A DNA stretch of 64,000 nucleotides from a virus, in the IMG/VR virus record IMGVR_UViG_3300021963_000021, positions 299,944 through 363,943 of that record. The stretch is one strand, 5' to 3'. Within the stretch, counting starts at the first letter, position 1. Every line of letters starts with the position of its first letter. The translations under genes and the position numbers were made by a program. This document shows, piece after piece, positions 39,306 through 52,017 of this stretch. The notes under the pieces were generated by a model that was given only the letters and a program-made list of their open reading frames with translations, searched no databases and was not told where the DNA came from.

Positions 39306-39592
39306 TGCTACAACTAAGATTTGAACTAAAGAATCCTTGGTCTAAAGATCGTTTTAAGAATCTAGGCTGTGTCAGCGGACGCATTTCCAAGAATAAAGCG
39401 TGGGAATTAGAACACACATTCTATGATGGTCTCATAGCAGACTGTGAGTTTAAGTTCACGACCAAAGAAGATCATGCTGGTCTAAACATTATGATAGGTG
39501 TTCTAGGCTACGCTGTTCATTTCAGCATCTACGATACTAGACACTGGGACTACGAAAACAACTGTTGGCAAGTTTATGAAGATTTGCGCTAG
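39305..39592 (+). CDS. hypothetical protein
   Basis: 95 aa. Its TAG stop lies within the first 7 nt of the downstream tRNA. Confidence 0.3.
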   Translation: MLQLRFELKNPWSKDRFKNLGCVSGRISKNKAWELEHTFYDGLIADCEFKFTTKEDHAGLNIMIGVLGYAVHFSIYDTRHWDYENNCWQVYEDLR

Positions 39593-39660
39593 AAGCCTAA
39601 TGGTCAGGCACGGGTCTCTAAAGCCCAGGATAGCAGGTTCGATTCCTGTCTAGCGCACCA
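39586..39660 (+). tRNA. tRNA with anticodon CUA (amber-suppressor-like, class I, amino-acid identity unknown)
   Basis: 75 nt: GCGCTAG-AA-GCCT-AATGGTC-AGGC-A-CGGGT-CTCTAAA-GCCCA-GGATA-GCAGG-TTCGATT-CCTGT-CTAGCGC-A-CCA. Perfect 7-bp acceptor stem, 4-bp D stem, T-loop TTCGATT and encoded CCA. The anticodon stem has 3 G-C pairs, a U-G wobble and one C-A mismatch. The loop is C-U-CUA-A-A (U33, A37). Confidence 0.6.
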
Positions 39661-48989: not shown

Positions 48990-49053
48990 ACACGTTATTA
49001 GCTATAGTGGAAGATGACTTATACTACGTGATACTGCTATTAACAGTCTCCGT

Positions 49054-49260
49054 GTGGAGTTTCTTCGCGGGCATGTCGTTAGGCTGGCTTTGGTGTATAT
49101 TACTATGACAGTGCTATGGCTATTAGTGGTATACACACTACAGGGTGAACCTAGAGTACTGGCAGCTTATACAGATCGCAGCTACTGCGAATCGCAGGCA
49201 CAACAATGGATTGATCAGGGCAGTCACGCAGAATGCCGCAGTAAACTCACTCAGAGCTAA
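49054..49260 (+). CDS. hypothetical membrane protein
   Basis: 68-aa ORF with one hydrophobic helix. An alternative 40-aa frame starts at 48978, so the call is uncertain. Confidence 0.25.
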   Translation: MEFLRGHVVRLALVYITMTVLWLLVVYTLQGEPRVLAAYTDRSYCESQAQQWIDQGSHAECRSKLTQS

Positions 49261-49261
49261 A

Positions 49262-49272
49262 GGCCCCGCTGC
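49262..49272 (+). repeat. GGCCCCGCTGC 11-mer copy 1
   Basis: Exact 11-mer immediately after the TAA stop of the previous gene. Confidence 0.6.
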
Positions 49273-49470
49273 AGCATATAGCCGGGGAGTCTAGGGTGGG
49301 AGATCATTTTGGACTGTTGAGAGAGTATTTTTACTAAGCCTCACATACCACACTCTTTTGAATCGTTTTACCACAGTGATCACTGCCCCGACCACAGTCT
49401 TTTGAACCATAAACCACCATTTACCACCGTAGGCCAGTAAATCTGATCCTTAAAACGGTTCTCTCACAGT

Positions 49471-49481
49471 GGCCCCGCTGC
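49471..49481 (+). repeat. GGCCCCGCTGC 11-mer copy 2
   Basis: Exact copy 8 nt upstream of the -35 at 49489. Confidence 0.6.
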
Positions 49482-49488
49482 GACTGAA

Positions 49489-49517
49489 TTGACATTTGTC
49501 TAGAATGATCGTATAAT
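49489..49517 (+). promoter_or_regulatory. sigma70-consensus promoter
   Basis: TTGACAtttgtctagaatgatcgTATAAT. Confidence 0.65.
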
Positions 49518-49548
49518 ATATGTACATTAACACTCAGTGAGACACACG

Positions 49549-49710
49549 ATGACGAGACTTATACTACTAGCACTCTTAGCTACACAGCTGGCAGCATGTA
49601 TGACACCTTTGACTGTGGCAAAGCAGCATCGTGCGCCATGGGACCCGGATCCCAGCGAAGGTGGTTCACTGTTGAATCAGCGTAGACCTACCTGTAACGG
49701 TCACTGCTGA
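49549..49710 (+). CDS. hypothetical small lipoprotein-like protein (53 aa)
   Basis: MTRLILLALLATQLAACMTPL... Not in the ORF track. Confidence 0.3.
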   Translation: MTRLILLALLATQLAACMTPLTVAKQHRAPWDPDPSEGGSLLNQRRPTCNGHC

Positions 49711-49729
49711 TCTCTGCATGCAGTAGAAA

Positions 49730-49740
49730 GGCCCCGCTGC
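49730..49740 (+). repeat. GGCCCCGCTGC 11-mer copy 3
   Basis: Exact copy 14 nt upstream of the 49754 ATG. Confidence 0.6.
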
Positions 49741-49753
49741 TAGGACGTAGACT

Positions 49754-50014
49754 ATGACATTACCCGACGAAAGATATCGTGCTGTATCGCAGACTCGCAG
49801 GTTTCTTCTGGATCTCTGTAACCCTGAACACACGCCCAGAGTGCCTAGGCTGGTAAGGGAAACTGCTCGCAGCATGTTGAGACACTATCCCTCTGACTGG
49901 GAACTAGATCAGCTAGCTGCTGCTGCGCCTGAGCTTTTACAGCAGCGTATGGAACCTTTGTATAGGATGATCAAGCAATATGAACTGGACTCTGACCACA
50001 CAGATCCCACATAA
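49754..50014 (+). CDS. hypothetical protein
   Basis: 86-aa ORF overlapping the TilS-like start. Confidence 0.3.
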   Translation: MTLPDERYRAVSQTRRFLLDLCNPEHTPRVPRLVRETARSMLRHYPSDWELDQLAAAAPELLQQRMEPLYRMIKQYELDSDHTDPT

Positions 50015-50612
50015 GTGCGTCGTAGCTGTGTCGGGCGGTGCGGACAGCATGGCTCTGTTACACTTTGCTGCGCAGGACTCACGTAGGGAAGTCACTGCTG
50101 CTGTATACGATCACGGCACGGGTGCTCACACTAGTGCGTTTCCACTAGTAGAGGCCCTGTGTGATCGACTAGGGATTGATGTTGTAACTGCCCGGCTAGC
50201 AGCTGAGAGATCACGTGGGCAATCTAGGGAAGATCACTGGCGCCAGCAACGTTACAGATGGTTGCGCACATTGGGTCAGCCGGTGTTAACTGCTCACAAT
50301 CTAGATGATGTCGCTGAGACCTGGCTGTGGAGCACGTTACATGGTCAGCCCACATTAATGCCAGCAGAGAACCAGGCGGTGCTGCGTCCACTGTTGGCGG
50401 TCCGGCATGCGGAGCTGGCTAAGTACTGTGAGCAGCATTCAATTGACTACTGGCTGGACCCTGCGAACACAGATCACGATCAGTTCGCGAGACCCCGTGT
50501 ACGATATGTGCTCAAGCCCGCAGCAGAGTACGTCCACCCAGGATTTTTCACTGTCTTGCGCAAAAAACTGTTGACACGTCGGCAGTTAGATCATATACTA
50601 GAACACTGTTAA
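49980..50612 (+). CDS. tilS: tRNA(Ile)-lysidine synthetase-like PP-loop ATPase (catalytic domain only)
   Basis: 210 aa. PP-loop VAVSGGADSMALLH, LTAHNLDDVAETWLW (TilS HhLDDqaET motif) and YWLDPANTDHDQFARPRVR (TilS DPSN..F.RNR motif). Lacks the long C-terminal domain of E. coli TilS. Confidence 0.65.
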   Translation: MNWTLTTQIPHKCVVAVSGGADSMALLHFAAQDSRREVTAAVYDHGTGAHTSAFPLVEALCDRLGIDVVTARLAAERSRGQSREDHWRQQRYRWLRTLGQPVLTAHNLDDVAETWLWSTLHGQPTLMPAENQAVLRPLLAVRHAELAKYCEQHSIDYWLDPANTDHDQFARPRVRYVLKPAAEYVHPGFFTVLRKKLLTRRQLDHILEHC

Positions 50613-50620
50613 GAGATAAC

Positions 50621-50697
50621 GCCCCTATAGCTCAATAGGTAAGAGCACCCGACTCATAATCGGTAGGTTCCTGGTTCAAATCCAGGTGGGGGCACCA
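50621..50697 (+). tRNA. tRNA-Ile2-like (anticodon CAU, lysidine-type)
   Basis: 77 nt with encoded CCA. The anticodon arm CCCGA-CUCAUAA-UCGGU and the overall sequence closely resemble E. coli ileX tRNA-Ile(LAU); they are unlike initiator or elongator Met tRNAs. Lies immediately downstream of the TilS-like gene. Confidence 0.7.
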
Positions 50698-50700
50698 AAT

Positions 50701-50784
50701 GCCCGCGTGGTGGAAGTGGTAGACACAAGAGACTTAAAATCTCTCGCTTATGGCGTGCCGGTTCGAGTCCGGCCGCGGGCACCA
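50701..50784 (+). tRNA. tRNA-Leu (anticodon UAA)
   Basis: 84 nt with long variable arm, anticodon loop CUUAAAA and encoded CCA. Near-identical architecture to bacterial tRNA-Leu(UAA). Confidence 0.85.
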
Positions 50785-50873
50785 TTGACGAGTTGGAGTG
50801 CCTAGGCATTGACCCTGGAGCCGTTAGGGTCTTTGTTTCTGTGCTATAATACGTTTTTTAACTAGGAGCGAGT

Positions 50874-51056
50874 ATGAAGATGGTTTTTGTAGTACAAGCA
50901 CAGGGATTCGGAGACGACGAAGCTGCCTTTGAGAACATTGCTGCTTTCACTCGTAGACCACTGGCCCAGCAGTATGTTGCTGATCTCCAGGAGCAGGATC
51001 TAGTGGACGACATGGAGCATGTGTACAGAGTAGAAGAAATAACCCTACAGGCCTAA
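50874..51056 (+). CDS. hypothetical early protein
   Basis: 60 aa, RBS AGGAGCGAGTATG. Confidence 0.35.
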   Translation: MKMVFVVQAQGFGDDEAAFENIAAFTRRPLAQQYVADLQEQDLVDDMEHVYRVEEITLQA

Positions 51057-51075
51057 GGGCTTGCGAAAATAGGGG

Positions 51076-51103
51076 TTGACAAACTCTACAGACGTGCTAT
51101 AAT
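51076..51103 (+). promoter_or_regulatory. sigma70-consensus early promoter
   Basis: TTGACAaactctacagacgtgcTATAAT, followed by a CA-rich leader and RBS AGGAGCGCACTATG. Confidence 0.7.
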
Positions 51104-51134
51104 ACACACTCAACAACACACACAGGAGCGCACT

Positions 51135-51488
51135 ATGCAAGAAGATCAGAAGCAGTATTTTGTCCGTCGTCTCAACGAGATCGCACGTGAAAAGATCAAC
51201 GCTAAGGCTGTAGCATTGTTTGGACCCGCAGGACGTCCAGAGCAACCCACTTGGGGCCAGGTCTTTGCTGCGATCAAAGCAGGCGAGATCACCCTGCGCG
51301 AAGACAAGGTGGACTACACCGGCGCTTACCTTAACCCCTCTGATGTCGTGTGGCCTGCTATGGAAGCAAAGAAAGCAGAGCTCGCAGACTATCGCAAGAC
51401 CGTAGAAGCAGAACGTCAGCGTGCAGAAGATTCTGTGATGTTGGACGCAGACGCACAACAAGCCCTGACTGCTTTCCAGGGTATTTAA
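51135..51488 (+). CDS. hypothetical early protein
   Basis: 117-aa ORF. Confidence 0.4.
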   Translation: MQEDQKQYFVRRLNEIAREKINAKAVALFGPAGRPEQPTWGQVFAAIKAGEITLREDKVDYTGAYLNPSDVVWPAMEAKKAELADYRKTVEAERQRAEDSVMLDADAQQALTAFQGI

Positions 51489-51495
51489 CGAGTGG

Positions 51496-51524
51496 TTGAC
51501 AGGGCCTTCGGGCCCTGTTATAAT
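51496..51524 (+). promoter_or_regulatory. sigma70-consensus early promoter
   Basis: TTGACAgggccttcgggccctgtTATAAT with a hairpin in the spacer. Confidence 0.7.
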
Positions 51525-51553
51525 ATGGCTATATTAACACTAAGGAGCGAGCT

Positions 51554-51985
51554 ATGGGTACACGTTGTTTGACTTTTGTCTACGAGGGCGCGACGCCTGT
51601 GGTCAATCTCTATCGTCAGTACGATGGTTACCCTGAGGGTCACGGTCGCGAGCTGGCTCTGCTGCTGACCCGCGGTGAATTGATCAATGGGCTCACAGGT
51701 GAAGATCGCCCCGCATTCAACGGCATGGGCTGCTTGGCTGCGCAGGTCGTAGCACACTTCAAACAGAGTGTGGGTGGCTTCTATATCTACTCTGTAGAGC
51801 AGACTGACTGCGGTCAGGACTACGAGTATCACGTCTATGAGCAGGAGCAGCAGCTGATGGTCCGTGTGGTGAACCGTGGCTGCAACATGTTTGGGCTCAC
51901 TATGAGCGATACCAACACGGTGATCTTTGAGGGCACAGCACAAGAGTTCTATAGTTACTGTGAACCCAAAAAACAATCTGCATAG
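51554..51985 (+). CDS. hypothetical early protein
   Basis: 143 aa, RBS TAAGGAGCGAGCTATG. Confidence 0.4.
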   Translation: MGTRCLTFVYEGATPVVNLYRQYDGYPEGHGRELALLLTRGELINGLTGEDRPAFNGMGCLAAQVVAHFKQSVGGFYIYSVEQTDCGQDYEYHVYEQEQQLMVRVVNRGCNMFGLTMSDTNTVIFEGTAQEFYSYCEPKKQSA

Positions 51986-51988
51986 GGG

Positions 51989-52017
51989 TTGACAAACGGT
52001 CAGCGACGTGCTATAAT
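51989..52017 (+). promoter_or_regulatory. sigma70-consensus early promoter
   Basis: TTGACAaacggtcagcgacgtgcTATAAT. Confidence 0.7.

Follow-up and report, generated by a model that had tools for sequence, protein, structure and literature searches.

A phage TilS homologue reduced to the catalytic domain and its linkage to a tRNA-Ile2(CAU)-type gene: a predicted cassette for decoding AUA and UUA

Background

The locus considered here lies in a 64,000-nt window of phage DNA (IMG/VR record IMGVR_UViG_3300021963_000021; all coordinates are window positions) and consists of tilS, a gene for a 210-aa homologue of tRNA(Ile)-lysidine synthetase (TilS), followed by a tRNA with the anticodon CAU and a tRNA-Leu(UAA). 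The question it raises is whether the phage carries, in one compact unit, both an AUA-reading tRNA and its modification enzyme in a form that has only the catalytic domain. In its unmodified form, tRNA-Ile2(CAU) receives methionine and is unable to read AUA.

The TilS types recognized so far are type I, with an N-terminal domain (NTD) followed by CTD1 and CTD2, type II, with the NTD and CTD1, and fusions (PMC11947777). Through CTD1 and CTD2 the enzyme touches the tRNA at its anticodon stem or elbow and at its acceptor stem (PMC11947777). In the biochemical work on TilS at least one appended domain was always needed to select tRNA-Ile2 and reject tRNA-Met, and how discrimination is achieved without CTD2 is stated as an open question (PMC11947777).

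We consider it probable that the locus gives the phage a self-contained cassette to decode AUA and UUA. The observations are gene order, assignment of the protein family by sequence and fold, the type of the tRNA, codon usage and a conserved linkage; a transcription unit, enzymatic activity, the substrate and a benefit to the phage are predicted from them.

Results

Sequence and fold of the 210-aa protein

The three TilS signatures named in the earlier note on this DNA, SGGxDS, HNLDDxAET and DPAN..F.R, are present in the protein as SGGADS (aa 18-23), HNLDDVAET (aa 106-114) and DPANTDHDQFARPR (aa 160-173). Pfam returned PF01171 alone (1.5e-30), and the NCBIfam model TIGR02432 (lysidine_TilS_N) matched over model positions 2-187 of 189 with 105 bits (4.4e-30), above its curated cut-off of 93.6. 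Matches of this strength greatly exceed what chance would give. The same model was matched by all 37 aligned family members (E <= 1e-5). Generic PP-loop models were far weaker (TtcA, 1.6e-4; QueC, 0.0057-0.019), LarE and others were marginal, and only weak PAPS-reductase and QueC-like matches were obtained with PHROGs, so that PHROGs v4 contains no family for this protein. The identification as a TilS homologue proposed in the earlier note was thus borne out by the family models. The best matches by sequence among solved structures were the TilS enzymes 3a2k, 1ni5 and 1wy5, all over the N-domain only. An AlphaFold2 model built from the alignment of the 37 family members had a predicted local distance difference test (pLDDT) score of 94.4, and in a fold search with this model the six best PDB matches were TilS chains (1ni5, 1wy5, 2e21, 2e89, 3a2k; TMq 0.76-0.79), with the TtuA sulfurtransferases ranking after them (TMq ~0.7).

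The catalytic residues were judged by conservation in an alignment of 92 short TilS sequences with 69 long ones (281-460 aa), E. coli TilS included. Columns that are invariant in the 69 bacterial TilS were kept in the short family: SGGxDS, His45, Glu84, Arg88, Arg91, His106, Asp109-Asp110, Glu113, Arg136-Pro137, Asp160, Asn163, Arg171 and Arg175. SGGxDS was also invariant in family alignments of 30 and 37 sequences. One systematic difference from the bacterial enzymes was found: following Gly122, the short proteins have a glycine-rich loop with about 8 residues fewer.

No TilS C-terminal domain family, neither CTD1 nor CTD2, was detected in the protein with Pfam or NCBIfam. The full-length TilS model NF007942 gave 50 bits against a cut-off of 606, with a match confined to the N-terminal part, and the protein stops within or just after a linker-like helix. 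The truncation, which the earlier note had also described, is real, because both domains are missing and the next feature, a tRNA, begins 8 nt after the stop codon. Nor did Pfam detect a TilS C-terminal domain that might act in trans in the nine neighbouring ORFs. The C-terminal end is a basic helix (aa 189-209) which, judged by its position in the alignment, would be the start of the TilS inter-domain linker. The family models and the predicted fold support the view that the protein corresponds to the PP-loop catalytic domain of TilS and has neither CTD1 nor CTD2.

A truncated enzyme might have acquired an altered chemistry or specificity, attaching another amine at C34 or modifying host tRNA-Met or tRNA-fMet and so disturbing host translation. 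CTD1 and CTD2 are absent, the shortened loop is close to the active site and specific to the short family, and TilS can use 5-aminovaleramide in vitro (PMC13602947). A TilS from which CTD2 had been deleted kept weak activity and lost the 3:70 discrimination in the acceptor stem, but it still rejected tRNA-Met (PMC11947777). The residues conserved in bacterial TilS N-domains are retained, however, and the tight linkage to an Ile2-type tRNA described below points to the ordinary substrate. Such a change of function is considered very unlikely.

Type of the adjacent tRNA

The tRNA-CAU has a canonical cloverleaf with the anticodon loop CUCAUAA (ARAGORN, Rfam), and the Rfam tRNA model scored 71.8 bits (E 9.9e-14) for this tRNA and 55.9 bits (E 2.3e-9) for the tRNA-Leu(UAA). 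The rules for typing CAU tRNAs as initiator, Met or Ile2 were taken from PMC1635315. The tRNA is not an initiator, having G1-C72 (no C1xA72), C11-G24 (no A11-U24) and an anticodon stem, CCCGA/UCGGU, that has no GGG/CCC. It carries the Ile2-type features C4-G69, C5-G68, U12-A23, C29-G41, A37, A38 and A73, the first two of which are frequent in tRNA-Ile(CAU) and are determinants for E. coli TilS (PMC1635315). Its global identity was 79% to E. coli ileY, 70% to metT and 64% to metZ. Matches in E. coli numbered 6,047 records from 5,426 complete genomes, annotated by the NCBI Prokaryotic Genome Annotation Pipeline (PGAP), and of 40 rows sampled at even spacing down this ranking all were annotated as tRNA-Ile and none as tRNA-Met. 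The assignment made in the earlier note is therefore supported by these comparisons, which place the phage tRNA-CAU in the tRNA-Ile2 type, neither elongator nor initiator Met.

The remaining identification, a generic PP-loop enzyme (a TtcA/TtuA-type thiolase or a QueC-like protein) next to an elongator tRNA-Met, would be compatible with PF01171, which also covers TtcA, TtuA and Ncs6, with the rank of TtuA as second-best fold match, and with the label 'Met' that ARAGORN gives to the tRNA-CAU. That label is uninformative, since every CAU anticodon defaults to Met in ARAGORN. The TtuA and TtcA sulfurtransferases have PF01171 and a similar core fold in common with the phage protein but need Cys-ligated iron-sulfur (Fe-S) or zinc sites. 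In the short family no set of conserved Cys residues that could bind Fe-S or zinc is present, Cys150 alone being nearly invariant, which argues against an Fe-S sulfurtransferase; a sulfurtransferase identity was rejected for this reason and for the low scores to the sulfurtransferase models. With TIGR02432 above its cut-off, and with the tRNA features and the E. coli matches all of the Ile type, misidentification is contradicted in silico and must be regarded as extremely improbable.

A further observation concerns the 27:43 pair, which is non-Watson-Crick in 10 of the 16 unique tRNA-CAU that lie within 110 nt of tilS. The pair is C27.U43 in the window tRNA and G27.U43 in E. coli ileY; Met-like and fMet-like tRNAs have C27-G43. 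It may be a recognition feature for a TilS devoid of the appended domains. As clues to the affinity of the N-domain alone and to its rejection of tRNA-Met, this pair and the basic C-terminal helix are leads only.

The short TilS family

In a protein database search, about 57 proteins of ~200-230 aa ranked above any bacterial TilS of 300-350 aa. An exhaustive search of 1.84 billion cluster representatives gave the same picture: the best 150 clusters (50% identity) were almost all of ~150-250 aa, mostly near 200, and the first proteins of TilS length (340-460 aa) appeared near E 1e-24. Scores between short proteins were about twice those between short and long TilS. The nearest cellular sequences were the ~300-350-aa TilS of Chloroflexota and Actinomycetota.

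At least 557 short-TilS loci were found in IMG/VR, while close short homologues were present on only two contigs among one genome for each of 185,579 bacterial and archaeal species. One is a contig of the Pelagibacteraceae single amplified genome AG-430-L09 (locus L169) and the other a contig of a Halobacteriovorax metagenome-assembled genome (L170); they encode short TilS of 206 and 207 aa, and in each a tRNA-CAU lies 310-525 nt downstream of tilS. The two contigs probably represent phage DNA caught up in a single-cell or binned assembly, and they may give a hint of possible hosts. By these searches, the ~200-aa TilS forms a large family that is almost confined to phage sequence.

Linkage of the short TilS to tRNA-CAU

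Linkage was examined in a sample of 80 IMG/VR short-TilS loci with 10-kb flanks. Any tRNA was present in 33 loci, and 31 of these had a tRNA-CAU, which was the tRNA nearest to tilS in 23. The linked tRNA-CAU may lie upstream or downstream of tilS, always on the same strand, and is often the sole tRNA, 0-36 nt away. It was the only tRNA, at 21-36 nt, in five loci (L092, L101, L125, L134 and L163) in which the full 10 kb upstream of tilS and 3-10 kb downstream could be read. CAU accounted for 38 of the 146 tRNAs across the loci, a share that fell to about 6% when the linked copy was removed. When TilS was clustered at 70% identity, a tRNA-CAU was found within 10 kb in 15 of 23 clusters and within 110 nt in 10 of 23. 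The pairing of TilS with tRNA-CAU is conserved and recurs across many phages. The view in the earlier note that the phage carries the tRNA and its modification enzyme together thus appears to extend to its relatives.

The gene order of the window, TilS, CAU, Leu(UAA), was found again in L091 (44% TilS identity), where, of the CAU tRNAs, only the Ile2-like one adjoins tilS, and the CAU/Leu(UAA) pair was also present in L006, L008-L011 and, twice, in the Pseudomonas phage MIJ3. L091 (=L006) and L093 (=L008) have all three classes of CAU tRNA, the Ile2-like one 21 or 676 nt after tilS, a Met-like one 2.5-2.8 kb upstream and an initiator-like one (C1xA72, A11-U24) 3.0-3.4 kb upstream. In L006 (3798-3885), L008 (4450-4537) and L009-L011 the CAU-Leu(UAA) pair is immediately followed by a tRNA-Ser whose anticodon, ACU (A34), is unusual. 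No conserved protein neighbours were found for seven ORFs near the window tilS by tblastn against the 80 related loci.

The anticodon loop was CUCAUAA in all linked tRNA-CAU, and most had G3-C70 or A3-U70, the discriminators of tRNA-Ile(CAU) according to Silva et al. (PMC1635315). The acceptor stems were widely variable, which is what would be expected if the short TilS does not read the acceptor stem. Among the tRNAs examined (L092-L163 and the window tRNA), many TilS-linked tRNA-CAU had G1.U72 or A1-U72.

For bacterial tilS loci, a tRNA-CAU was found within 5 kb in 7 of 78, mainly in the Chloroflexota and candidate phyla, which are nearest to the phage family. It lies ~70-480 nt upstream of a full-length tilS in some Chloroflexota, Saccharibacteria and Calditrichota (L171, L179, L185, L217, L228, L233).

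The linkage has exceptions, and these bear on an alternative in which the short TilS acts mainly on host tRNA-Ile2 and raises or maintains AUA decoding, the phage tRNA being a frequent but secondary companion. Such an activity would be useful when host gene expression is shut off or the host TilS is slow; the efficiency of bacterial TilS spans a ~1000-fold range and is low where AUA is rare (PMC11947777; kinetic table in PMC12514573). In 43 of the 80 loci, which make up two lineages, there was no tRNA within 10 kb, and in the jumbo phages PA5oct and MIJ3 tilS lies 7-10 kb from the tRNA cluster, whereas it adjoins the tRNA in the window. The largest short-TilS lineage, a 34-member cluster represented by L158 (9980-13601), is one of those without a tRNA, and in a T4-like arrangement its tilS immediately precedes genes for a DsbA-like protein and a family-B DNA polymerase. 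In most lineages, however, the gene touches a tRNA-CAU that is sometimes the sole tRNA in 20 kb, and the others may carry a tRNA-Ile2 beyond the 10 kb that were read on each side. The alternative is, moreover, compatible with action on the phage tRNA. Action chiefly on the host tRNA is unlikely in our view.

Organization of the locus

The ORF call and ARAGORN reproduced exactly the 210-aa ORF, the tRNA order and the spacings given in the earlier note, 8 nt from the tilS stop codon to the tRNA-CAU and 3 nt from there to the tRNA-Leu(UAA). The features of the locus are listed in Table 1.

Table 1. Features of the tilS-tRNA locus (window positions)
Feature	Position	Strand	Remarks
tilS ORF (ATG start, TAA stop, 210 aa)	49980..50612	+	putative minimal tRNA(Ile)-lysidine synthetase homologue with the N-terminal domain only; PP-loop motif (SGGADS) at nt 50031-50048
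tRNA-Ile2 type, anticodon CAU, CCA encoded	50621..50697	+	ARAGORN, Rfam, E. coli references
tRNA-Leu, anticodon UAA, long variable arm, CCA encoded	50701..50784	+	ARAGORN, Rfam
sigma-70-type promoter-like site, TTGACA-17-TATAAT, 12/12	49489..49517	+	5' of co-oriented orf57, orf86 and tilS; consensus match only
orf57, 57 aa, first gene of putative unit	49537..49710	+	lipoprotein-like N-terminus (MRHTMTRLILLALLATQLAAC); no Pfam match
orf86, 86 aa	49754..50014	+	35-nt overlap with the beginning of tilS; no TilS C-terminal domain
promoter-like site, TTGACA-17-TATACT, 11/12	50571..50599	+	within tilS 3' end, ~20 nt 5' of tRNA pair; consensus match only
intrinsic-terminator-like hairpin (8 bp, 4 G-C) then TTTGTTTCTG	50811..50841	+	closes putative unit

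Of the two small ORFs that precede tilS in the putative unit, orf57 was not conserved beside TilS in the 80 related IMG/VR loci, and orf86 had no Pfam match and no homologue in the same loci. Eight promoter-like sites were observed where 3.5 were expected. Perfect 12/12 sigma-70 consensus promoters (TTGACA, 16-17 nt, TATAAT) occur three times within 2 kb, the two beyond the one in Table 1 being at 51076-51103 and 51496-51524. The consensus sites suggest strong early transcription by the host RNA polymerase, and the promoters and the terminator suggest that orf57, orf86, tilS, tRNA-Ile2 and tRNA-Leu form one transcription unit.

Elsewhere in the window, at 39586-39660 (+), there is a tRNA of the amber-suppressor type with the anticodon CUA (ARAGORN label 'Pyl'; Rfam 57.2 bits). 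TAG is the stop codon in only 10 of the 102 ORFs of the greedy longest-ORF set. A similar suppressor tRNA was reported in the jumbo phage RsoM2USA (PMC8504454).

Window context and codon usage

The window has 44.3% G+C and is ~90% coding. Its PHROG matches include tail-fibre or tail-spike and virion-structural proteins, and it also has genes for ribonucleotide reductase subunits, DNA ligase and members of the phage ATPase and DUF2201 families. An identical protein is on record from a contig of 363,943 bp, and a jumbo phage is a reasonable reading of the source. Megablast of positions 49000-52000 gave tRNA-level matches only (Serratia phage 4S tRNA; EBPR podovirus 3 tRNA-Leu), and by this comparison the phage is one without a close cultured relative.

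The use of AUA and UUA, which the earlier note had proposed to measure, was heavy in the 102 ORFs: AUA makes up 15.4 per 1000 codons and 24.8% of those for Ile, UUA 15.0 per 1000 and 18.6% of those for Leu. For scale, AUA is used at 4.9 per 1000 in E. coli and 0.6 per 1000 in B. cenocepacia (PMC12514573). Within the window, AUA was higher in the minus-strand block with the structural genes, 21.1 per 1000 against 8.0 in the plus-strand block that holds tilS. The two blocks (1-28200, mostly minus; 28258-64000, mostly plus) differ 2.6-fold in AUA and have a G+C content at third codon positions of 0.37 and 0.47. The tilS-tRNA unit thus sits in the low-AUA block, which is also the block with the sigma-70 consensus promoters.

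Phage tRNAs can evade tRNA-targeting defences, and the cassette might accordingly serve as a counter-defence that rebuilds AUA and UUA decoding after attack by anticodon nucleases or tRNA depletion, with the phage TilS quickly maturing the replacement tRNA. The unit would be self-sufficient for this purpose, with enzyme, substrate tRNA, encoded CCA ends and promoter-like sites, and TilS-linked tRNAs vary greatly in their acceptor stems. The context offered no sign of a defence system or nuclease, however, and the high use of AUA and UUA by the phage is a sufficient and simpler reason for the cassette. We rate this explanation as quite unlikely.

Discussion

Comparison with known systems

The phage protein shares with the bacterial type I TilS (E. 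coli TilS/MesJ, 1NI5; the G. kaustophilus TilS-tRNA complex, 3A2K) the catalytic PP-loop N-domain, the conserved residues, the fold (TMq 0.76-0.78) and the expected substrate, C34 of tRNA-Ile2(CAU). It differs from these enzymes of 432-464 aa in having 210 aa, in the absence of CTD1, CTD2 and ~8 residues of the Gly-rich loop, and in that its gene adjoins the substrate tRNA gene. The bacterial type II TilS (Aquifex aeolicus, 1WY5/2E21; Chloroflexota, Actinomycetota) has no CTD2 either, and therefore neither form would be able to read the acceptor stem. Type II retains CTD1, whereas in the phage form the N-domain is followed only by one basic helix. The tRNA-CAU just upstream of tilS in some type II-bearing bacteria is akin to the phage linkage.

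In phages, a putative TilS was described in the Pseudomonas jumbo phage MIJ3, identical to the PA5oct protein, and its authors regarded it as new among phages, with a role not known at the time (PMC6892783). Neither the absence of the C-terminal domains nor a tRNA-Ile2 partner is taken up there, and each of the three CAU tRNAs is listed as Met. Over 89% of the query, the 203-aa TilS of PA5oct/MIJ3 (Wroclawvirus) shares 33% identity with the window protein, and it aligns within the short family. In MIJ3, two CAU-Leu(UAA) tRNA pairs, annotated as Met for the CAU member, lie 9-10 kb upstream of tilS. The TilS of the Ralstonia jumbo phage RsoM2USA (~344 kb; ORF84), which also has an amber-suppressor tRNA(CUA), is of type II length with 349 aa (PMC8504454), and appears to be of a different lineage because it was absent from the tblastn matches to the window protein. 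Prophages with a tRNA-Ile2(CAU) that relies on the host TilS are also known, e.g. in L. curvatus, where the phage CAU tRNA reads AUA, a codon used more by the phage than by the host (PMC10688831). These prophages need the host tilS, whereas the window phage brings its own modification enzyme along with the tRNA. Open-access papers and preprints yielded no account of an N-domain-only TilS class or of a phage TilS/tRNA-Ile2 linkage. A short phage TilS is thus already annotated, though not analysed, in a few cultured jumbo phages, and within this literature the N-domain-only architecture and the tRNA linkage appear to be new.

Proposed mechanism

In the mechanism that we favour, the host RNA polymerase would most likely transcribe tilS and the two tRNAs as one unit that begins from the consensus promoter (49489) and ends at the terminator (50811); a further promoter-like site lies in the 3' end of tilS. 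The 210-aa enzyme, if it works like bacterial TilS, would use ATP to adenylate C2 of C34 in the adjacent tRNA(CAU), and the epsilon-amine of lysine would then attack the adenylated C34 to give lysidine. The modification would switch the tRNA from a substrate of methionyl-tRNA synthetase that reads AUG to a substrate of isoleucyl-tRNA synthetase that reads AUA. The tRNA-Leu(UAA) would add capacity for decoding UUA, and both tRNAs would serve the demand of A/U-ending codons, which appears highest in the structural-gene block. It would be sensible for a phage to carry its own TilS, because host TilS enzymes co-evolve with the acceptor stems of their own tRNA-Ile2 and can be very slow, and because an unmodified foreign tRNA-Ile2 is useless for AUA.

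Several points weigh against the cassette, 1) the activity of the short phage TilS is predicted from its sequence, and an N-domain alone may bind tRNA weakly, 2) the ~8 residues missing from the glycine-rich loop are conserved in bacterial TilS (E. coli Gly133, Gly136), 3) the two lineages lacking a nearby tRNA show that the enzyme is not always tRNA-linked, 4) the typing of the tRNA depends on simple rules, E. coli references and PGAP annotations, not on isotype-specific models, 5) the codon counts come from the greedy longest-ORF set and are approximate, with a few wrong calls, and 6) a mismatch in codon usage between phage and host is presumed from the window figures for AUA and UUA.

A broader proposal is that the ~200-aa phage proteins constitute a third class of TilS, with the N-domain only, which would be active without a domain that binds the tRNA body, would read the anticodon arm only and, with its own tRNA-Ile2, would form a portable AUA-decoding unit independent of the host. 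We give this a somewhat better than even chance.

Conclusions

The in silico evidence supports the system in the window as a new architectural variant of a known enzyme, within the known phage strategy of tRNA supply. One practical consequence concerns annotation, since ARAGORN-style labelling and the deposited MIJ3 record both give 'tRNA-Met' for the CAU tRNAs beside short tilS genes, and these labels should be corrected. A catalytic-domain-only TilS encoded with its substrate tRNA provides ready-made minimal enzyme/tRNA pairs for testing tRNA discrimination, and such pairs may be a compact orthogonal part for codon reassignment. If the third class is real, it would be a natural minimal lysidine synthetase with which to test how tRNA-Ile2 is distinguished from tRNA-Met without a readout of the acceptor stem, or whether host tRNA-Met is an off-target. 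For the phages themselves, the pairing would explain how an AUA-reading tRNA can be transferred between hosts whose TilS may not accept it.

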